From: Eledone cirrhosa | Lineage: Eukaryota | Length of the DNA stretch: 64,000 nucleotides | Assembly: GCA_964016885.1 (NCBI GenBank) | Contig: OZ024746.1 | Span: forward strand, 76,012,001 to 76,076,000 | Reading direction: 5' to 3' | In this document: positions 7,906 through 61,939 of the stretch, piece after piece | How the letters are laid out: each line of letters opens with the position of its first letter | Numbering within the stretch: position 1 is the stretch's first letter | The notes under the pieces: model-generated | What the model was told of the DNA's origin: nothing | Database searches by the model: none | The model's input: only the letters and a program-made list of their open reading frames with translations | Translations under genes and position numbers: made by a program

Positions 7906-8900
7906 CTAAGCACGCACGCATGCATACATACATACATATATGCACGCACGCGTGCATGCATATATACATACAATATGCACACACGTATGCATGCATTCAT
8001 ACATACATACATACACAACATACATACATACATATATGCATACATACATACATACATACATGCTTGCATGCATACATGTATGCATGCATACACGCTTGCA
8101 TACAAATATATATACATACGTACGTACATACATGCATACATACATATATCTAAGCACGCACGCATGCATTCATACATATATGCACGCACGCGTGCATGCA
8201 TATATACATACATATATGCACACACGTATGCATGCATTCATACATACATACATACACAACATACATACATACATATATGCATACACGCATACATACATAC
8301 ATACATACATACATACATACATACATACATACATACATACATACATACATACATACATGCTTGCATGCATACATGTATGCATGCATACACGCTTGCATAC
8401 AAATATATATACATACGTACGTACATACATGCATACATACATATATCTAAGCACGCACGCATGCATACATACATATATGCACGCACGCGTGCATGCATAT
8501 ATACATACATATATGCACACACGTATGCATGCATTCATACATACATACATACATACACAACATACATACATACATATATGCATACACGCATACATACATA
8601 CATACATACATACATACATACATACATACATACATACATGCTTGCATGCATACACGCTTGCATACAAATATATATATACATACGTACGTACATACATGCA
8701 TACATACATATATCTAAGCACGCACGCATGCATACATACATATATGCACGCACGCGTGCATGCATATATACATACATATATGCACACACGTATGCATGCA
8801 TTCATACATACATACACAACATACATACATACATATATGCATACACGCATACATACATACATACATACATACATACATACATACATACATACATACATAC
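7864..8900. repeat. Higher-order repeat built from (CATA)n variants, ~240-300-bp units
   Basis: Marker TATATCTAAGCACGCACGCATGC at ~7901, 8145, 8442 and 8709. Confidence 0.9.
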
Positions 8901-8901
8901 A

Positions 8902-9311
8902 TGGTGGCTGCCAACTCGTTTTCGAGTACGGCTACTACTTTATATCCATGTAGGAGAACCCCTACCAATGCACTGAACGAGTGTGACTTTTTAGTCCAGC
9001 CAGCGACTTGAAAACTCTGGTACAAACACTACACCTGTGACAATTATTGGCACATAGTGCTGGGCCCATGGTATCATGTGACGACAAGTGCAGGGAGATC
9101 TCCAGATATAAAGCAATGCCTGTGCCGTGAAGCTTTTATAGTGAGCAAAGGCACTGCACAAAGCCAGTCCCACTCTCTTAACCAAGATGATATTTACCAA
9201 AAAGAAGAACAAGTCAACATCATTGGATACCATCAGAGTTGCAGGTGTTATATCAGAGTTTTCCTTCTCCTAGAATTCTGCCTTGACAAAGGCTAAGGGG
9301 TCATCTCTCCC
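8902..9311 (-). mobile_element. 5'-truncated family A element, copy 4
   Basis: Matches the 3' ~410 bp of family A, starting at GGGAGAGATGACCCC. (CATA)n on both sides. Confidence 0.88.
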
Positions 9312-13962: not shown

Positions 13963-14265
13963 GTGGAAACACCAATAACTATTTTATGTAATGCATATGA
14001 CAAGGTAGGAATTATCACTTATATCACAATTAGATTCTCATATATATATATGTGTGTGTACATGTGTATGCGTGTATCTTTGTATATGTGTTTGTATGCG
14101 TGTATCTGTATATTTTGATCTCTATTTTTATGTTCATGTTTATGTATGTGTGCATGTATGTATATCTGATTCTGTGTGTACGTGTATTTTTTCCATTATT
14201 TTAATTGAGTCTCACTTCCATTTGTAATAGATTTTATTTCATATCTTATATCCATAACAAAGATT

Positions 14266-14335
14266 TTCCATCTGATGAACGAAACAGACGTTTCTGTTAG
14301 AATCGTCTAACTTCGTGAAACCTTGGGTAATGGAA
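14266..14335 (+). ncRNA. Type I hammerhead ribozyme candidate
   Basis: TTCCAT-CTGATGA-ACGAA...TTCGT-GAAA-CC(TTG)GG-TA-ATGGAA: 6-bp stem I, extended stem II, GUA triplet. AATAAA and a TA array follow. Confidence 0.8.
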
Positions 14336-14381
14336 TAATTATATTGTGTTGTTTATTACATAATAAATATATATATATATA

Positions 14382-15804: not shown

Positions 15805-15849
<45 letters not shown>

Positions 15850-15900
15850 TAATAAAACAATGAATAAACAAAGAAACGGTTCCTTATATTAAAAAAAATT

Positions 15901-16037
15901 CATCATTTTACGATCGTTTCTAGGATATATATGTGTTAGAGTTGGTATGCATATTCTATAGATCTATGTACAATATTTATACAAACTATCAGAGGGAATA
16001 TACATACCTACACATATATATGCTGTCTTCAGAAATA

Positions 16038-16040
<3 letters not shown>
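15901..16040 (-). ncRNA. Minimal hammerhead candidate with long stem II insert
   Basis: CATTATTT-CTGAAGA-CAG...CTA-GAAAC-GATC-GTA-AAATGATG: 8-bp stem I, palindromic tetraloop. Confidence 0.65.
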
Positions 16041-19950: not shown

Positions 19951-20245
19951 CACACACACGTGAGCGTGCACACATATGTATTATGTTAAACAATGAAAGA
20001 ATGAGAAAAACAAAGTGAAGTATTAATTGATTCATTGTTTTACAATCGTTTCAGAGTGCAACGTATCGATGTGCAGATTATTCAATGGTAGTTATGTAAT
20101 TCCATACCATCAGCCTCCAACAGTAGATCTTTTCTGTAACCGTTTTTCAGAAACAATGGATTTTATTTTTATTACTCATATGAGTAAGCAGGTATCACGT
20201 GTTGTCAGATGGTTATATATCCTGCCTTGCCTTGGCAGAACACTG

Positions 20246-20367
<122 letters not shown>

Positions 20368-20495
20368 ATATGAAACGATCGTAAAAACAATGAACTAATT
20401 AACTAACTACCTGCCTCTGACTTCTGTCTTGTTTTCATTGTTCTATTCACAAACAAACGCACACACACACACACATACACACACAAACACACACA

Positions 20496-22639: not shown

Positions 22640-23166
22640 AAGACGAAAAATCAGTAATGCATCTGAACTCAATTTATTGTGTGTTACAATTGTTTCGCTC
22701 TGGATGAATGTATGCTAATGTTTATACGTTTATATGTTCTCCTTAATGTGTGGGTATAGCGGGAGCATATGCGTACGACTGTCAGTATCTATGTGGTTGT
22801 GTATGTATGTGTGTGTGTATGAGTGAGTGCGCGCGTGGATGTATGGACTACCAAACACAACAGTAATTCATTGAAGTGTAGCAGACGTGGGACAGCGGAA
22901 TAATACCTGTGGTCAGAATTTATGATGACGTAGGCAACCAGCCGCCAATCACTGGACGCGCGTAGAGGAGTGTTTGACAGTACTGGCCCACAGGGTGAGA
23001 TACCCCAGTGGAAGAATATCCTCCGAATTCATTAGACGTGTCCGTCGAACCTGCGTATCCAGAATTAGACAGATCCACACAATGATCGCGTCTCGAGCTG
23101 TCCGCCGGCGAAACAATTGTAACACACAATAAATTGAGTTCAGATGCATCACTGATTTTTCGTCTT
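22640..23166. mobile_element. Element with ~60-bp terminal inverted repeat carrying GAAAC-AATT-GTA (Penelope-like)
   Basis: 22640-22698 is the reverse complement of ~23108-23166. (TA)n lies on the right. Confidence 0.6.
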
Positions 23167-24637: not shown

Positions 24638-26256
24638 CTTTCTCTTGGTTTCTCTCTCAACTAAGTAAGTGAAATTCTTCCCATCAACAGAACTTTGGTA
24701 AATATATTTTTAATAATACTTTTATATTTATCATACCTGACAGATAACACGACACAATTCAACTGTAGTTATTGATCTGCATGTATTGTCATATAACTTC
24801 GACGTAAGTTATATTTAATAAATTAGTAACATAGCGGCTTTGTGTTATTGTGGTTTATATATTTCATTTCCTATGTGATCAGAGTAAATCACTTACCCAA
24901 AAAATCATCACATCGTCATCATACTCACTTGCACACCCGCAGTCACTGGTCATTGGTCACACTGTATCAGACACATCAGTCTTCTTTCGCCTACACTCTA
25001 ACCAATAGTGACCATATCACTGAGTAATCCACAAGTGAATACACAACACAACAACCGAATCAACACCACCATCCATCCTAGTACCAGATTCGCTATAATT
25101 GGTAACAAGAACCACTATAGGTTTAGGTACACTAACCAATCTAGTCATAATCTACAGCTTCAATATCATAAATGGGAAGTTAAGTGAACTGAAGATCCTA
25201 GATGAGTAAAGAAGGAAACTAATTGCTGTATTCAAAATACCTTCCTAATGTTGATGTAAATAGGATATACAGACAGAAATCTGAGCTAACGAAGAAGTCT
25301 TTACAGTAGCTAGATTTGTTAGAAATAGCAGCCAAATCTCCCTCAAACCACACCTTAGAAAAGGACACTAAAGATAATGTAGGCTAGGGTACATTACTGC
25401 TGGAACAAAAGACGGGTTAGTTATGGCGCCAATACCCTTTGTTCAAGACAGAATTTATGCAGCGAGGGGGCTCTGGGCTAGGGAACATTTGAGGCTTTTG
25501 CCTTAAGAAAATGAAAATTAAAAGCAGATGAATGTAGGCATACACAAAGAACGATGCTGACATTCCAGCCTCGTTTTCATGTCGATCTTCAAAACAGAGA
25601 TGACACCCACAGTAAACGAAATGTATTTAATAACAACTACAATATTCTAAATGATGACAAAAATATCGTTTTTCATGTCTATAAAGTATTTTAATATATA
25701 TTTAAAACGGGACGGAATGTCCTGAACTATGAGGCTCTGGACTGCAGCCCACTTAGCCCATATGTCAGTTCGATACTGTCTTTGTTCATAGGCCTGTTCG
25801 ATTATGGCTGATCTGGGGTTAAACAACAACATCAGAGAATAAGAGGCCAGATTCAAATAGAGAATTATTACAGATACACCAGAATAATCATAGAAACGGG
25901 TGGTAAAGAGACCAAACGTTCACTTGATTAGTATAACAAGTGACTATAGAGAAAAACAAACGAACTATAAAAACCTTACTATGTAACATGTGACAAAGTA
26001 TAAACTAGGAAATAAATATAATTGGAGGAAAAGCAATAGATAAAAACGAATATGCAGAAAAAGTGTGACATGTATCTTCCAAAGGCTCAGCCAATTACAC
26101 GTTAATTTCATGAACAGGTTATTCCGTGGATCGAACACTTAGGACCATAATCGTCAGAAATGACCGAGGTCCAACAACATGTATGTATGTATGTATGTAT
26201 GTATGTATGTATGTATGTATGTATGTATGTATGTATGTATGTCTGTATGTGTATGT

Positions 26257-26863
26257 CAGGTCACCAGTTGGTGCTACTGGTAACATGTATCCCAGTACAA
26301 CCTGTCTCATGGTCGGGTCGTTGGCGACTAAACTGGCAACCCCACCAAGGTTTCTTGGTGAGGAGGGTGACTTTGGACATCCTGCAGGACTAAAAACAAA
26401 ACCTGTCAAAGGGCAAAGGAGCTCTTAAGAGTCAATGGCCATCCAAAATCACCGGGAGAGATGACCCCTTAGCCTTTGTCAAGGCAGAATTCTAGGAGAA
26501 GGAAAACTCTGATATAACACCTGCAACCCTGATGGTATCCAATGATGTTGACTTGTTCTTCTTTTTGGTAAATATCATCTTGGTTAAGAGAGTGGGATTG
26601 GCTTTGTGCAGTGCCTTTGCTCACTATAAAAGCTTCACGGCACAGGCATTGCTTTATATCTGGAGATCTCTCTGCACTTATCCTCACATGGTACCATGGG
26701 CCCAGCACTATGTGTCAATAATTGTCACAAGTGTAGTGTTTGTACCAGAGTTTTCATGTCGCTGGCTGGACTAAAAAGTCACACTCGTTCAGCGCTTCGG
26801 TAGGGGTTCTCCTACATGGATATAAAGTAGTGGCCGTACTCGAAAACGAGTTGGCAGCCACCA
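26257..26863 (+). mobile_element. 607-bp bipartite non-autonomous RTE-derived element, family A, copy 1
   Basis: Has the RTE-type 5' UTR motif CTAGGAGAAGGAAAACTCTGA, a coding remnant HKCSVCTRVF.SLAGLKSHTRS resembling RTE C-terminal zinc fingers, a CTCG-AAAA-CGAG 3' hairpin and a (TGTA)n tail. Near-identical copies occur elsewhere in the window. Confidence 0.85.
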
Positions 26864-27190
26864 TGTATGTATGTATGCATGCTGCATGTATGTATGTATG
26901 CATGTATGTATGCATGCTGCATGTATGTATGTATGTACGCATCTATGTATGTATGCATGTATGTATGCATGCTGCATGTATGTATGTACGCATGTATGTA
27001 TGTATGTATGTATGTATGTATGTATGTATGTATGTATGTATGTATGTATGTATGTATGCATGTATGTATGCATGCTGCATGTATGTATGTACGCATGTAT
27101 GTATGTATGTATGTATGTATGTATGTATGTATGTATGTATGTATGTATGTATGTATGTATGCATGTATGTATGTATGGATGGATGGATGT

Positions 27191-28050: not shown

Positions 28051-30001
28051 TTTTCTCTTTCTCTTAATTTTGAGTATATTTTTTTGACCGGCCACCTACC
28101 TGGTGGCAAGGTTGTAAAAGAAAAGAAATTGTCATCCCTTGAATCGCAAGAATGTTTTGCAAATTTTGAAGGTGCCAGCTATCGCAGCCATTTGTAGACT
28201 ATGAATTAGGGAGCTGCGCTTTTTGTCCGCAAATCCAAGTTCAGTCATACTTTGGTCCAAGCGGGTTGGTATATAACCCGTAGCACCAATAATGATGGGT
28301 ATGAAGCTAAAGGTGTATCTTGGATACCGGATCTGTAAACTCCCCATCAATGGTCCGTAGATGTCCTCCTTCTCCTGTATTTTTCTGACAACGTTTACAT
28401 CAAGTGGGCAGCTGATCTCCACAACAGAACACGTTTTCAATGTGTGGTCCCAAACTACAATATCAGGCCGGTTGTGCTTTAATTTGGTGGCAGTTTTTAT
28501 TTTCAGGTTCCACCAGTATTCCTTAGTGCCATCTGTCTCAATATATTCTTCCTCGTTTGTTGTTAATTTTGTTTTCCGAAGTGCGTTCCAGATGGTTCTA
28601 GCTATCCCATCGTGTCTCATGGGGAGGTAGTAGCGAGATGACATTCTTTCGCAGCCGGCAACAATGTGGCTTACATCCTCGATCTTTGTTTTACATAGCC
28701 TACATTTATTGTCAGCTGCTGGCCCTCCTCTTTTGTGCAGGAGATATTTGGTAGGGAGTTCTTGTTCCTGTATTGCATAGAGATATCCCTCAAGGTGTGA
28801 TGTCATAAACCTGTCGGAACTCCATGCCAGGCTTTTTGAGTGGTTTATCCCCTCTATGGTCTGTGTTTTACGCCTCAAGTATCCATGCACAACTTTTTCT
28901 GTAAATTGGTCAATTTTTTTTTCTTGTTTGAACATTGAATAGGATCTTCCGATTTCTCTGGGTGAGAGATTTATATCGGGCTTTATTCCATATCTCTCCT
29001 CCAGATCAGTCGCTATTCTAATGATATTTCTTTTTTCATGGTCATAAACCTGGGCAAGATGGTTGCCAACCCTTTTCCTCTGTTGAAGGTGTTGCTTCAG
29101 TGTCACTATCCGGGTCTCATATGTTGTTAATATTGATTTTAGACCCCGGCCACCTTCCTTGCGTGAGAAGTATAGCCTATCCACATCACCATTGATGTTA
29201 AAGTTCCCAGTAACACTGAGAAGTCTTCGAGTTCCAACATCCATCTCACTTAGTTCTTGCAATGACCAGTTCAGTAGGCCAAATGTTGGCGTTAGAATTG
29301 GCACAGCATAAGTATTGTGGTCAATGTATTTGTTGTATGCTGACCGTTCTGATGACCATATTTTCTTTACTCTTCTGAGGTATTCAGTTCTGGTTCTCTC
29401 CTTATTTATGGGTCCATCATATCTGACATTCTCATCCTGTCCAAGATATCTGCAGTTGTCACCTGACTGCAGAGGTTGTATTGTCAGGCCGTTCATCTCT
29501 AGATTTCTAGAGGAGGGCACAGCTCTTCCACGTTTTACTGCCAAATATGCACACTTGGACTCACCAAATTTCATTTTGATGTCGGTTGAAAATTGTGTAA
29601 TGAGGTCCAATTGTTTCTTGATGTCATTGATATTTGGCCCATACAACTTCAGGTCATCAACAAAGAAAAGATGGGAGATACTTCTGGTCCCACTTCTTTG
29701 TCGACCTTGTTTCCTGAGTAGGTAAGATAGTGGACTCAGTGAGAGAACGAAGAGTAGCACTGACAAGCTATCACCCTGAAAGATGCCCTTCTGGTAATGT
29801 ATCTTATCAGTCTTAACCTGCTCCTTCTCACCTCTAAGGATCAAACTGGTGTACCAGTTCTTGGTCAGGCGTTCAACAGCAGCTACCAATGGTTGTGGGG
29901 ACTTTAGCTAACTGTAAAGCCTTAACAATCCACCCATGAGGTACACTATCAAATGCTTTTTGATAGTCCAGCCACACGACAGTCATGTTTCTGCGATTCT
30001 T
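28051..30001 (-). mobile_element. R4/Dong-clade-like non-LTR retrotransposon (RT + zinc knuckle + restriction-like endonuclease), 5'-truncated, inserted in (TATG)n
   Basis: Contains the 585-aa ORF. Upstream of a +1 frameshift near 29898 the minus strand reads NRRNMTVVWLDYQKAFDSVPHGWIVKALQ. The ~80-bp 3' UTR has a GCCACC/GGTGGC hairpin. Both ends abut TATG repeats (CATA on the sense strand). Confidence 0.9.
28132..29889 (-). CDS. Truncated retrotransposon ORF: reverse transcriptase C-half, CCHC knuckle, RLE (PD-(D/E)xK-type) endonuclease
   Basis: Motifs: GIFQGDSLS, LFFVDDLKLY, YLG, RLYFSRKEGGRGL, CRLC..EDVSHIVAGC, RHD, RPDIVVWD, VVEISCP, KEDIY, PIIIGATG. Confidence 0.9.
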   Translation of the reverse strand: MVAAVERLTKNWYTSLILRGEKEQVKTDKIHYQKGIFQGDSLSVLLFVLSLSPLSYLLRKQGRQRSGTRSISHLFFVDDLKLYGPNINDIKKQLDLITQFSTDIKMKFGESKCAYLAVKRGRAVPSSRNLEMNGLTIQPLQSGDNCRYLGQDENVRYDGPINKERTRTEYLRRVKKIWSSERSAYNKYIDHNTYAVPILTPTFGLLNWSLQELSEMDVGTRRLLSVTGNFNINGDVDRLYFSRKEGGRGLKSILTTYETRIVTLKQHLQQRKRVGNHLAQVYDHEKRNIIRIATDLEERYGIKPDINLSPREIGRSYSMFKQEKKIDQFTEKVVHGYLRRKTQTIEGINHSKSLAWSSDRFMTSHLEGYLYAIQEQELPTKYLLHKRGGPAADNKCRLCKTKIEDVSHIVAGCERMSSRYYLPMRHDGIARTIWNALRKTKLTTNEEEYIETDGTKEYWWNLKIKTATKLKHNRPDIVVWDHTLKTCSVVEISCPLDVNVVRKIQEKEDIYGPLMGSLQIRYPRYTFSFIPIIIGATGYIPTRLDQSMTELGFADKKRSSLIHSLQMAAIAGTFKICKTFLRFKG

Positions 30002-30105
30002 ATGTATGTATGTATGTATGTATGTATGTATGTATGTATGTATGTATGTATGTATGTATGTATGTATGGATGGATGGATGGATGGATGGATGGATGGATG
30101 GATGT

Positions 30106-30712
30106 CAGGTCACCAGCTGGTGCTACTGGTAACATGTATCCCAGTACAACCTGTCTCATGGTCGGGTCGTTGGCGATTAAACTGGCAACCCCACCAAGGT
30201 TTCTTGGTGAGGAGGGTGACTTTGGACATCCTGCAGGACTAAAAACAAAACCTGTCAAAGGGCAAAGGAGCTCTTATGAGTCAATGGCCATCCAAAATCA
30301 CCGGGAGAGATGACCCCTTAGCCTTTGTCAAGGCAGAATTCTAGGAGAAGGAAAACTCTGATATAACACCTGCAACCCTGATGGTATCCAATGATGTTGA
30401 CTTGTTCTTCTTTTTGGTAAATATCATCTTGGTTAAGAGAGTGGGACTGGCTTTGTGCAGGGCCTTTGCTCACTATAAAAGCTTCACGGCACAGGCATTG
30501 CTTTATATCTGGAGATCTCTCTGCACTTGTCGTCACATGTTGCAATGGGCCCGGCACTATGTGTCAATAATTGTCGCAAGTGCAGTGTTTGTACCAGAGT
30601 TTTCAAGTCGCTGGTTGGACTAAAAAGTCACACTCGTTCAGCGCATCAGTAGGGGTTCTCCTACATGGATATGAAGTAGTGGCTGTACCTGAAAACGAGT
30701 TGGCAGCCACCA
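30106..30712 (+). mobile_element. 607-bp bipartite RTE-derived element, family A, copy 2
   Basis: Same length and ends as 26257-26863. Flanked by (TATG)/(GATG)n and (TGTA)n. Confidence 0.88.
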
Positions 30713-30734
30713 TGTATGTATGTATGTATGTATG

Positions 30735-31058
30735 TCTCTCTTTCTCTTAATTTCGAGTATATTTTTGACCGGGCACCTTCCTGGTGGCAAGGTTGTAAAA
30801 GAAAAGAAATTGTCATCCCTTGAATCGCAAGAATGTTTTGCAAATTTTGAAGGTGCCAGCTATCGTAGCCATTTGTAGACTATGGATTAGGAAGCTGCAC
30901 TCTTTGTCCGCAAATCCAAGTTCAGTCATACTTTGGTCCAAACGGGTTGGTATATAACCCGTAGCTCCAATAATGATGGGTATGAAGCTAAAAGTGTATC
31001 TTGGATACTGGATTTGCAAACTCCTCATCAATGGTCCGTAGATGTACTCCTTCTCCCG
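30735..31058 (-). mobile_element. Short 5'-truncated copy of the same R4/Dong-like element
   Basis: Highly similar to 28051-28378 (C-terminus ...GTFKICKTFLRFKG* plus 3' UTR), with (TATG)n on both sides. Confidence 0.92.
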
Positions 31059-32164
31059 TATGTATGTATGTATGTATGTATGTATGTATGTATGTATGTA
31101 TGTATGTATGTATGTATGTATGTATGTATGTATGTATGTACGTATGTATGTATGTACGTGTGATTTTTTAACTAGATTTCTGAAAATTTCTGATGTTTCC
31201 TGTTCGCGATCTCGGAAATCTTAAACCCACAGTATACAAATTTATCTTGTAGTTGTTTTGACGCCCCAGGCCGGCCGTGATCAGAATAGGCAGTCTGTCA
31301 AACAACAGGAGTCGATCCACAGAGCTGAGAACTAAATTGCACATGTAGTTGTTCATTGCATACAATGTAGAGTGACAGAGTGGACGCAGGTATGGCTTCA
31401 CATGTAGTGATTAATCACATGGGATGTCGTGTAACAGAATGGACGCAACATGGCTGCGCGGTTAAGAAGATCGTTTCGCAATCAAAAGGTGCCGAGTTCG
31501 ATCCCACAGCGGGTTCATCCAAGTCTTGTAAGTGAAATTGGTTCGATGAAACTGCACGGAAGCCCGTCTGATGGACTGTACTTGTAATTCAAAGGTTCAA
31601 TCTTGTCATATATTGTTTCACGCTGATTCTGTTTGAGAATTACGTTAAGAGTACTCGTGTCTGTGGAATACTCAACCATTTACACGGAAATGCAGTGTCT
31701 GTAAGGTTACATTAATCATTATGTGCATGTCCATATATATGTATGTGTGGTGTGTATGTGTGTATATGCATAGGTATATGCATAGGTATGTGTGTGTGTA
31801 TGTGTTTGTGCATGATCGTGTATATATGTGGAGTATTTCTGTGTGTATTTGCGTATGAGTATGTGTGTGCTTGTCTGAGTATGTGTGTATGTTGTATATG
31901 TGGGATTCTAGACATGTTTGTGCATATGTAGGTCTGTATGTATATACGTGTATGGGCATGCTCGTGTGTGTGTGTGTGTGTGTGCATGTATGTACGGGCG
32001 TGTGTGTGTGCATGTATGTACGTGTGCGTGTGTATGTGCGCATGTGTGTTTGTGTGTCTGTGTGTGTGTTTGTACGCATGTGTGTCTTGTGTGAATTCGA
32101 AAAATGGTTGATGTTGGCACTGTTGTTGGAGGAAGAGGTTTGGCTCAGACAGAGCTCTCATTTC

Positions 32165-44385: not shown

Positions 44386-44684
44386 TATACATATAAAGAG
44401 ATAGATATAGGCAGTGGTGTAGGGCAGACGACATCGTTGGCAAAGAACATTTTGACAGATTATGTATGACGCGGACAAAAATGCTATACAGTTTTCTTTT
44501 TATCAACCGTGTTTTCCGAACCATTCTTGGTTAGTTATTTTGCTGTCAATTGAAATTTGAAAGAGTAAAAGAAAAAATTCATACTGTCCCATTCCAAAAG
44601 ACAGTAAACTTGATGAAGGCAAATTCTTTGAATGAACAGTTAGAACAATCCAGTAATATACATACATATATATATGTATGTATA

Positions 44685-44778
<94 letters not shown>

Positions 44779-44905
44779 GGTATCCACTGTAAGTTGTGGC
44801 GTCTATTCTGCATGAAGAACTCGATGTAACCCATATGTTGAAAATGTTGTAGGTTAAGATAAATCTCAGAAAACAATAAAACATTAAAAGGAAAACAGAG
44901 TCATG

Positions 44906-45397
44906 ATATAAGTTAAAACAATGAAATAAAAAAATCAAGTCATTAGAGATATACTTCATTGCTTTACGATCGTTTCTAGGTGGTGATAATACATTGTATC
45001 TATACTCAGTTATTGATCTATGTAAGTTTACAAACTATCAGATAGAGAGAATATTTACTTACATGCATATCACCAGCTGTTTTCAAAAGCAATAATAATT
45101 TTATTCAATAATAATTTTATTCAGAATTAGTAGCATATTAGTATCATGTCCTCCAAATAAGGACATGATCATGCTACTAATTCTGAGTAAAATTATTATT
45201 GAATAAAATTATTATTGCTTTTAAAAACAGCTGGTGATATGCATGTAAGTAAATATTCTCTCTATCTGATAGTTTGTAAACTTACATAGATCAATAACTG
45301 AGTATAAATACAATGTATTATCACCATCTAGAAACGATCGTAAAGCAGTGAAGTATATCTCTAACTAATGACTTGATTTTTTATTTCATTGTTTTAA

Positions 45398-45404
<7 letters not shown>
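44906..45404. repeat. ~500-bp near-perfect palindrome (fold-back Penelope-like element)
   Basis: Arms of ~240 bp with centre near 45155. The right end abuts (TA)n. Confidence 0.9.
44956..45095 (-). ncRNA. Hammerhead candidate homologous to 15901-16040, U3-A8 core
   Basis: TTATTGCTT-TTGAAAA-CAG...CTA-GAAAC-GATC-GTA-AAGCAATGA: 9-bp stem I. Confidence 0.65.
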
Positions 45405-45441
<37 letters not shown>

Positions 45442-45714
45442 AACCAAATAAATATATATATTTTTTTTAAAATAAGACTCCAGTTGCATTTTCGATTTCA
45501 TCTTTTGTTCTTTATACTTTCACTCGTGTAGGACACCAGTTATTTTTCATTTTGTGAAAAAAACCTCACTTTCTAATATATATATATATTTATATATATA
45601 TGGAGGATTCGGGATCCCGACGGGTGAGCTCCTGCCGCTTCAACAGCTAGATCCGAACGTTCGAACTCTACTACCCCAAGTATACTTGGGGTAGTAGAGT
45701 TATATATATATATC

Positions 45715-54740: not shown

Positions 54741-55544
54741 TAAAAAGGAAAAGAAAATGCTGACAAATTTTCCCAGTGAAAAATAGTTTAATTAGGAATA
54801 AGTATAAATTAGTAATAAGTATTGGTTAGTATTCAGTTTTAGTTTTAAGTTTTTACCGGTTGCGCATTTCTAATGCTTTTCAAAAATAATTTTGAGATAG
54901 AGCGCTCGTGATGTTTACTCTAATCTGATCAGTTTGGGAAATTTTTCCTGTTTTCGACAAACCTACATTTGGCGCCAAACCAGTTCGCGCTAAAATCAAT
55001 TTTAACATTCACGTGACTTCTACCGATCAATCAAAATTGTTTTGACTACAAGAATTTTTGCAACACGAATTGGCGCGAAATTTATAGTACTTATTCACGT
55101 GACATTCAACAACCAACCAAATCTTAATACCTCTGGAGCCCCTTTTTTCACATAAAACAGGAAGAATTTCCAAAACTGATCAGATTAGAGCAAACATCAC
55201 GAGCGCTCTATCTCAAAATTATTTTTGAAAAGCATTAGAAATGCGCAACCGGTAAAAACTTAAAACTAAAACTGAATACTAACCAATACTTATTACTAAT
55301 TTATACTTATTCCTAATTAAACTATTTTTCACTGGGAAAAATTTGTCAGCATTTTCTTTTCCTTTTTACTAATATATCACAACTCGTGTGTCACACCTCT
55401 ATTTTTTTAAATAAATATATATATATATTTAAAAAAATAGAGGTGTGACACACGAGTTGTGATATATTAGTAAAAAGGAAAAGAAAATGCTGACAAATTT
55501 TTCCCAGTGAAAAATAGTTTAATTAGGAATAAGTATAAATTAGT

Positions 55545-60014: not shown

Positions 60015-60400
60015 CTACATACGCACACACAGACAGACACACAGACACACACACATACACACACAAACAGACAAACACAAACACACTCACACACTCACAC
60101 ACACACACATACCTACATACACACACACAGACAGACAAACACAGACACACAAACACACACAAACAGACAGACACACACACACACATACACACACAAACAG
60201 ACAGACAGACACACACTCACACACACACATACCTACATACATAGATACACACACATATACATATATATACATATATCACACATGTACATGCACACACATT
60301 CATAGATACATTCATACATACACAGACACATACATACATACATACATCCACATAAGTACATGCATACATACACACACACCTACATACATACATACATACA

Positions 60401-61007
60401 TGGTGGCTGCCAACTCGTTTTCGAGTACGGCCACTACTTCATATCCATGTAGGAGAACCCCTACCGATGCGCTGAACGAGTGTGACTTTTTAGTCCAGCC
60501 AGCGACTTGAAAACTCTGGTACAAACACTACACTTGTGACAATTATTGACACATAGTGCTGGGTGCATGGTACCATGTGATGACAAGTGCAGAGAGATCT
60601 CCAGATATAAAGCAATGCCTGTGCCGTGAAGCTTTTATAGTGAGCAAAGGCACTGCACAAAGCCAGTCCCATTCTCTTAACCAACATGATATTTACCAAA
60701 AAGAAGAACAAGTCAACATCATTGGATACCATCAGGGTTGCAGGTGTTATATCAGAGTTTTCCTTCTCCTAGAATTCTGCCTTGACAAAGGCTAAGGGGT
60801 CATCTCTCCCGGTGATTTTGGATGGCCATTGACTCTTAAGAGCTCCTTTGCCCTTTGACAGATTTTGTTTTTAGTCCTGCAGGATGTCCAAAGTCACCCT
60901 CCTCACCAAGAAACCTTGGTAGGGTTGCCAGTTTAGTCGCCAACGACCCGACCATGAGACAGGTTGTACTGGGATACATGTTACCAGTAGCACCAACTGG
61001 TGACCTG
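60401..61007 (-). mobile_element. 607-bp bipartite RTE-derived element, family A, copy 3
   Basis: Reverse complement of copy 1 with the same ends. (CATA)n on both sides. Confidence 0.88.
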
Positions 61008-61939
61008 ACACATACATACATACATACATACATACATACATACATACATACATACATACATACATACATACATACATACATACAATCCATTAATGGAACA
61101 GCAAACATATGTAAAACATTCCAAAAATGTTGCATCTAATAACTGCATATACACATGTACAGATACAAAGCATATACACATGCACACATACAACTCAAAA
61201 CATACACATCCACACATACAATAACATCCATATCTACACATGCATGCATACATACATATCTACCTAGTTGATGTTGTCTAAATTCCAATGAGAGAGTCTT
61301 GTATCTATGTTAGAAACCGACTCTCTCTCTCTCTATTGGTAAAACTTTGTGAAATTATAAGACCAGAAGAACATACATACATACATACATACATACATAC
61401 ATACATACATACATACATACATACATACATACATACATACATACATACATACATACGCGTATATATCACTTGCAACAATAATTTTCTCAACTTTAGGCAG
61501 CAATATTAGAAGAAGAAGAAGAAGAAGAAGAAGAAGAAGAAGAAGAAGAAGAAGAAGAAGAAGAAGAAGAAGAAGAAGACCTGCCATTTAATGGAGGAGT
61601 GGTTGATTTGTTATAAGGACTTCCTGAAGAACTGGTGCCAAGGAAATGCTTGAGATGGTTTATCTTCAGAGAAGTCACCAACATGAAACAGCTGGTTCTA
61701 GGGAATGGCAGATATACTGACTAGAATGTTGAATATTTCCCCCAACGGGATTGGAAAGGAAAGAAAAAGGCCCTTAACTCTTGATGAAGTCGTAGGGGCG
61801 CATTCATGATACACGCCGTGTCTTGGGTATTTTAAACCTGGTGGTGCCCATCCCTGACCAGGTTTCAACACAGCCGACTTCTTTCAGAGAAAAAGAGATA
61901 GAAAGGGAGAAAGTTATAAAGAAATGAAGAATCGACCTC

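Follow-up and report, generated by a model that had tools for sequence, protein, structure and literature searches.

The palindrome of about 500 bp at positions 44906-45404 of the Eledone cirrhosa DNA analyzed here (the window, 64,000 nucleotides of contig OZ024746.1) most probably represents two head-to-head, 5′-truncated pLTRs of a multi-copy Penelope-like family, or of a non-autonomous derivative of such a family, lying in (TA)n, with each arm holding the family's type I hammerhead and its helix II of about 100 nt. Penelope-like elements (PLEs) are already known to have hammerheads with U3-A8 in the core, to occur as pairs on opposite strands and to carry a palindromic helix III for dimers; what appears to be new is the rod-like, covarying helix II of 103-105 nt, and the rest is mainly known PLE biology.

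Anatomy of the Insertion and its Family

The arms of the palindrome (44906-45152 and 45160-45404) are 93.6% identical over 251 columns, differ by 6 substitutions and 3 indels and enclose a 7-nt spacer (45153-45159), in agreement with the earlier note, which had described a palindrome of this size. What it had not noticed is that the element extends about 120 bp past the left arm. The surrounding window is AT-rich and contains many microsatellites and retroelement remnants. The parts of the insertion, and a relative elsewhere in the window, are as follows:

44680..44775 (bounds approximate), unstranded: left (TA)n flank
44780..45400, unstranded: whole insertion, an inverted pair of 5′-truncated element ends between (TA)n runs
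44780..44905, minus strand: one-sided 3′ extension (the tail) of about 120 bp, family sequence; many copies end at 44906 in (TA)n
44906..45152, minus strand: left arm
45150..45162, unstranded: inversion junction, with complementary 3-bp ends on either side of the 7-nt spacer
45160..45404, plus strand: right arm, with the core at 45221-45227 (G5A at 45223), helix II at 45228-45330 and GAAA..GUA at 45331-45342; without tail
45400..45440, unstranded: right (TA)n flank
15845..16040, minus strand: single-arm relative (the homolog), 67% identical over 192 columns, flanked by (TA)n runs; it has C3-G8 and a helix II of 105 nt

The insertion is abutted by (TA)n at both ends, where any target-site duplication would lie. 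In public sequencing runs the stretch is matched by 952 contigs (run X1), 478 reads (X10), 3 contigs (X4) and 4 contigs (X6), depth in these runs not being equivalent to copy number; runs X6-X9 contributed small shares and were left out of host-range inference. Depth goes on past 44906 and individual pieces bridge this position, as expected for a tail that belongs to the family, and loose (TA)n ends occur at 44906 in 10 contigs from X1 and 22 reads from X10. The family shown by the public runs is dispersed and multi-copy, and its two 3′ ends lie about 120 bp from each other. The two arms have rare features in common, namely minority alleles and a 16-bp duplication that is apparently skipped by 6 contigs from X1, and they also differ at sites where the family commonly has either state; the inversion may thus have arisen by fold-back or from two templates.

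Several features of the PLE type are found together here: head-to-head inverted, 5′-truncated repeats, a 3′ tail on one end, a dispersed multi-copy family and microsatellite targets. The PLE plan set out in passages of PMC3846280 and PMC8557442 combines inverted arms, a palindrome at their junction and a tail confined to one arm, and the latter source also gives (TA)n as the preferred target of several PLE clades. The palindrome, for which the earlier note had identified no such context, is explained by this Penelope-like setting. We infer PLE membership from these features, since the window yielded no PLE ORF: among the 114 window ORFs scanned (of 324 candidates) none had a PLE RT or GIY-YIG domain, the copies being truncated. 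Short motifs from the window gave no relevant match to the PLE consensus files of PMC8557442, including octopus Naiad and Hydra, and Naiad 3′ ends compared by eye are unlike those of the window family.

A plausible origin can be outlined from the PLE literature. A PLE RT-endonuclease would nick a TA repeat, and cDNA synthesis would start at internal sites, yielding short and tailed ends; two internal RT start sites that set the tail, and priming on both target strands, are described in parts of Frangieh et al. (2024; PMC11167929). Copying would then have halted some 65 nt upstream of helix I; fold-back or twin priming, with a 3-bp match at the point of joining, may have linked the product to an inverted copy and so given the palindrome.

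Hammerhead Motifs in the Arms and the Homolog

Read outward from the palindrome center, each arm presents the elements of a type I hammerhead in order: helix I, core positions 3-9, helix II, GAAA, helix III and GUA. The earlier note's account of an intact motif in the left arm, an inactivated one in the right arm, a relative with its own fully paired helix I and an unusually long helix II insert of about 100 nt was borne out in each particular. On the minus strand of the left arm there is a 9-bp helix I, a UUGAAAA core at 45086-45080, a 103-nt helix II and GAAACGAUCGUA at 44976-44965. The right arm carries the same motif, also with 103 nt in helix II, except for an A at 45223 in place of G5, a catalytic position of the hammerhead. 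The homolog motif (16032-15909, minus strand) has CUGAAGA at 16032-16026, a 105-nt helix II and a paired helix I of 8 bp that includes one G-U. The components of the left-arm motif are:

45087..45095, minus strand: helix I, 5′ strand
45080..45086, minus strand: core positions 3-9, UUGAAAA, with U3-A8; N7 at 45082 is variable in the family
44977..45079, minus strand: helix II, rod-like, 103 nt, with C.A at its base
44965..44976, minus strand: GAAA, self-complementary 8-nt helix III and GUA; predicted cut between 44965 and 44964
44956..44964, minus strand: helix I, 3′ strand

The helix II of the homolog differs in sequence and folds into the same rod as those of the arms (fold z-scores -2.6 and -2.5 for the arms, -4.5 for the homolog). 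The published core pattern, YUGANRA with GAAA and an NUH triplet, is present in the left arm and the homolog, and the right arm departs from it at G5. Positions 10.1/11.1, which had not been remarked on before, are C.A rather than G-C in both arms and the homolog; since G10.1-C11.1 is missing, the motif is classed as a variant rather than as a member of the published PLE descriptor, which also specifies a helix II of at most about 8 bp with a small loop, as against the 103-105 nt seen here. Natural motifs with mismatches in place of G10.1-C11.1 are on record in part of PMC3088659. The missing pair, together with a possible U3-A17 pairing that extends helix I in the co-fold described below, could lower activity.

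Controls Against Chance

A likeness to the hammerhead by chance is excluded. A window descriptor consisting of the core and a helix I of at least 7 bp, formulated once the motif was known, had 4 matches in the window, of which 2 are the two arms of a single insertion, whereas 200 Markov resamples gave 0.015 on average. In all 161 matches to bare core patterns in metagenome and viral contigs (120 metagenome loci, with 27 of 64 parts scanned, and 41 viral loci, found with looser patterns) helix I was at most 4 bp, compared with 8-9 bp in the window motifs. None of these looser-pattern loci matched the window copies by blastn (E<=1e-3), and the family-specific pattern had 0 matches in metagenome contigs. 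Rfam returned no hammerhead among the 150 listed of 268 window matches, nor at E<=10 in 44790-45400 or 14220-14370; this blank says little, because the ordinary-type motif at 14272 was also missed.

Covariation and Selection on Structure

The earlier note had argued that the double change between C3-G8 and U3-A8, with covariation in helix I, suggests selection on ribozyme structure. When the 3/8 pair was followed across the window copies it was paired in 4 of the 5 copies having these columns and mismatched in 1; the full tally for 6 copies (U-A in 2, both arms; C-G in 2; C.A in 1; gap in 1) amounts to one independent double change. The C3.A8 mismatch belongs to the copy at 20041, whose helix II no longer folds (z -0.39). 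Selection on the hammerhead fold retains support from compensatory changes in helices I and II, the variable N7 and pairs that are mostly kept, whereas the 3/8 covariation contributes that single event. Across the 6 aligned copies 82.7% of cells pair, compared with 69.5% when shuffled and 29-51% in slid registers, and both sides have changed in 9 of 20 pairs spread over helices I, II and III, figures that come from 6 sequences only, of which 2 are arms of one insertion and 3 are decayed, with the structure derived from the same sequences.

Variation within the family points the same way, although as one-sided transitions these variants are weak evidence alone. Of the 40 best-supported differences (121 in all) 29 were examined and 27 fell within motifs, where about 64% of positions are paired; 10 lay at paired positions and 8 of these preserve the pair (7 distinct positions, 6 preserved). 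Core variation among the same 40 is confined to N7, whose variant makes up 18% of X1 depth and 27 of 110 X10 reads, and to 45223.

The pairing of an intact with an inactivated hammerhead, which had also drawn comment, is real in that both states are present, but there is no sign of design: G5A is nearly absent in the family, the arms are on opposite strands, and read-through RNA would form a duplex. Depth at 45223 is 83, against thousands nearby, because G5-bearing sequence aligns to the left arm, and G5A is therefore rare in the family. Lying on opposite strands, the two motifs do not form an on/off pair. The G5A change has the look of decay in the right-arm copy alone and would have arisen after insertion.

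Predicted Dimer Formation and Cleavage

In the monomer, helix III is only 2 bp. Co-folding of two left-arm motifs predicts that helix III forms between the molecules over 8 bp while both helix II arms are retained, at -74.4 kcal/mol compared with -64.6 kcal/mol for two monomers, and dimer pairing through helix III has been published for PLE motifs (passages of PMC4209133 and PMC6765202). In source transcripts two motifs would be predicted to pair through the self-complementary 8-nt helix III and to undergo a slow dimer cut after GUA, perhaps aided by the element's protein. In parts of PMC11167929 the hammerhead is described as cutting only with protein present and as dispensable for insertion in vitro. 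The two arms of the present insertion cannot form a ribozyme dimer, because they occupy opposite strands and RNA reading through both folds as one duplex of about 245 bp (-355 kcal/mol). Of 16 joint ends in X1, 3 lie at a distance of 1-3 nt from the predicted cut site, which could reflect fold-back at the palindromic helix III just as well as cleavage.

Alternative Explanations

A non-LTR retrozyme-like unit of about 175 nt, replicating through circular RNA and with a terminal redundancy as the motif at its short 3′ end, is improbable. In the arms and relatives a motif resembling the helix I 5′ strand does recur immediately ahead of the short 3′ end, retrozymes of animals consist of repeats of 150-450 bp that carry type I hammerheads (sections of PMC7229834), and their derivation from PLE pLTRs has been argued (portions of bioRxiv 10.64898/2026.07.22.740005). 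Against these likenesses, the window holds no tandem direct copy, there is no second core beyond the repeated motif, the tail has a different sequence, and the layout is inverted with the tail on one side. It is very unlikely that the locus is kept as a functional unit, whether as a pair of active and inactive ribozymes or as a source of long dsRNA used by the host: although read-through RNA would give the duplex of about 245 bp and G5A strikes a catalytic position, the motifs are on opposite strands, the duplex would destroy both folds, A5 is rare in the family (depth 83 at 45223) and the arms have drifted at 9 places.

The long terminal inverted repeat, the TA-rich DNA and the lack of an Rfam hammerhead match at E<=10 might recall a fold-back DNA transposon, or a MITE, with only an accidental resemblance to a hammerhead. 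This is hardly credible given that the controls exclude chance, that compensatory changes are present, that Rfam misses the 14272 motif too, and that the copy at 15845-16040 stands as a single arm between (TA)n runs instead of having both TIRs. Scarcely any weight attaches either to the palindrome being an assembly or library fold-back artifact of one real copy; none of the pieces listed from the public runs spans the whole stretch, but the arms differ by the 6 substitutions and 3 indels given above, some of the differences exist as both states in the family, and comparable outward-facing pairs are found at other sites in the window. Head-to-head pLTRs of a Penelope-like family stand as the preferred reading.

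Comparison with Known Systems

The window motifs share with the PLE hammerheads of PMC4209133 (in the parts available) type I topology, U3-A8 (about 1,300 Schistosoma matches), a palindromic helix III that implies dimers, mostly solo copies and some opposite-strand pairs, there 100-700 bp apart, and the identical UUGAAAA core is listed there for S. mansoni (4). They differ in helix II, which is 103-105 nt here compared with about 25 nt or less in 56 rows of Fig. S3 of that paper, in helix I (8-9 bp compared with 4-5) and in being without G10.1-C11.1. With the Hydra-clade and PLE-X hammerheads in File S2 of Craig et al. (2021; PMC8557442) they share (TA)n targets and a longer palindromic helix III; a mismatch at the helix II base is also common to those motifs (U.U, or C.A in PLE-X1_cBra), whereas the longest helix II in the table from that study is 53 nt. 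In overall plan the insertion resembles Adineta vaga Penelope (Arkhipova et al., 2013; PMC3846280) and PAc Poseidon (Frangieh et al., 2024; PMC11167929), which are described as having head-to-head inverted repeats with a junction palindrome, solo pLTRs and a one-arm tail from two RT start sites; the tail is about 120 bp in the window element compared with 30-40 bp in those descriptions, and the window arms have no ORF between them. Animal non-LTR retrozymes, as presented in sections of PMC7229834, likewise combine a short non-coding repeat with a type I hammerhead, but form head-to-tail tandem arrays, whereas the window element is inverted and dispersed. Active Penelope families have been described in Octopus vulgaris (PMC13282606), in passages that make no mention of ribozymes.

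Nothing beyond ordinary PLE biology is seen in the palindrome, in the U3-A8 core or in the right-arm copy with its dead motif. A limited check of titles and abstract openings found no helix II of about 100 nt in a PLE hammerhead, although the dimeric variants of Lunse et al. (2017) may include such. If the motif cuts, the range of hammerhead shapes in animal retroelements would be wider, and Rfam and the usual descriptors would undercount them in such genomes.

Helix II and the 3′ Hairpin as Candidate Control Elements

Two further features were considered for a possible role in control:

45245..45289, plus strand: candidate 45-nt stretch of helix II that contains AG, donor-like and branch-like motifs; its counterpart at the matching place in the homolog has 44 nt
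44914..44966, minus strand: alternative 15-bp 3′ hairpin, whose formation would hide the cut site together with the 3′ strand of helix I; it ends just before the short 3′ end

The donor-like site is paired inside the rod in the arms and the homolog, the 20041 copy is without donor and acceptor motifs, and donor-like hexamers are frequent in the window (0.36 per 100 nt, two spellings combined); from its motifs, the stretch could at best be called faintly intron-like. A coding role for helix II was rejected, as the reading frame of its shared apical motif is not the same in arm and homolog, and a 4-nt insertion is common.

The 3′ hairpin is able to bury the cut site in all 6 related copies (z -3.2 to -0.6), and the real tail lowers the predicted helix I probability from about 1.0 to <0.1. 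In a shuffled-tail control for this drop the left arm scored 3 of 100, a clear result, and the right arm, homolog and 20041 copy scored 15, 9 and 5, respectively; in the homolog and the 20041 copy almost any shuffled tail lowers helix I probability. RNAalifold gave no consensus structure for the 6 tails. With the controls mostly unconvincing, these folds only hint that the hairpin might serve as an off-switch.

A more ambitious proposal would hold that a class of PLE hammerheads with a helix II of about 100 nt has been overlooked, that the long arm is a control module burying the splice-donor-like site of a 44-45-nt intron-like stretch, and that a 3′ hairpin at the RT start site keeps the ribozyme off until the element's protein binds. 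This conjunction is unlikely to hold in full. The core search described in PMC8557442 took spacers of 7-17 nt only; such a class could have been overlooked because published searches took short spacers only, and some "ribozyme-less" PLE families may therefore have hammerheads. If the proposal were true, PLE intron retention and hammerhead function would both be testable in one small RNA.

Other Motifs and Repeats in the Window

Related outward-facing motifs occur at 20150-20041 (minus strand) and 20372-20383 (plus strand). The former, not noticed before, combines the mismatched C3.A8 with a helix I of 8 bp and an insert of 91 nt that has lost its fold, and the latter is interrupted by a (TG)n run. 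A second outward-facing pair, about 410 bp apart, lies at 22696-22685 (minus) and 23110-23121 (plus), with near-identical tails of about 45 nt after GAAA..GUA; the first core half was not found in this pair. At 11003-10992 (minus) a related 3′ half is without its first core half and has, judged by eye, an inverted copy of its own tail about 40-55 nt upstream, and at about 9996-9889 (minus) a decayed motif with a long insert has CUGAUGA as its core and U.U at the base of helix II. The 9889, 10992 and 20041 copies and the 22860-23135 region fold no better than shuffles. At 46723-46712 (minus) a GAAA..GUA motif with a palindromic loop and a basal helix II of 5 bp accompanies a damaged first core half. 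A more ordinary type I hammerhead of another family is found at 14272-14329 (plus), with CUGAUGA, a 38-nt helix II, a 6-bp helix I and no Rfam match.

A frame of 591 aa at 28135-29907 (minus) with RVT_1 and zf-RVT matches is the remnant of a non-LTR retrotransposon, a second piece of whose C-terminus lies at 30816-31220 (minus). Four copies of a young repeat of about 430-700 bp with 95-98% identity adjoin (TACA)n at 26180-26881, 60383-61084, 30103-30735 and 8879-9311. About 260 bp to the right of the insertion there is a perfect 38-bp palindrome (45664-45701), and a near-perfect hairpin of about 93 bp with a TA-rich loop occupies 55374-55466.
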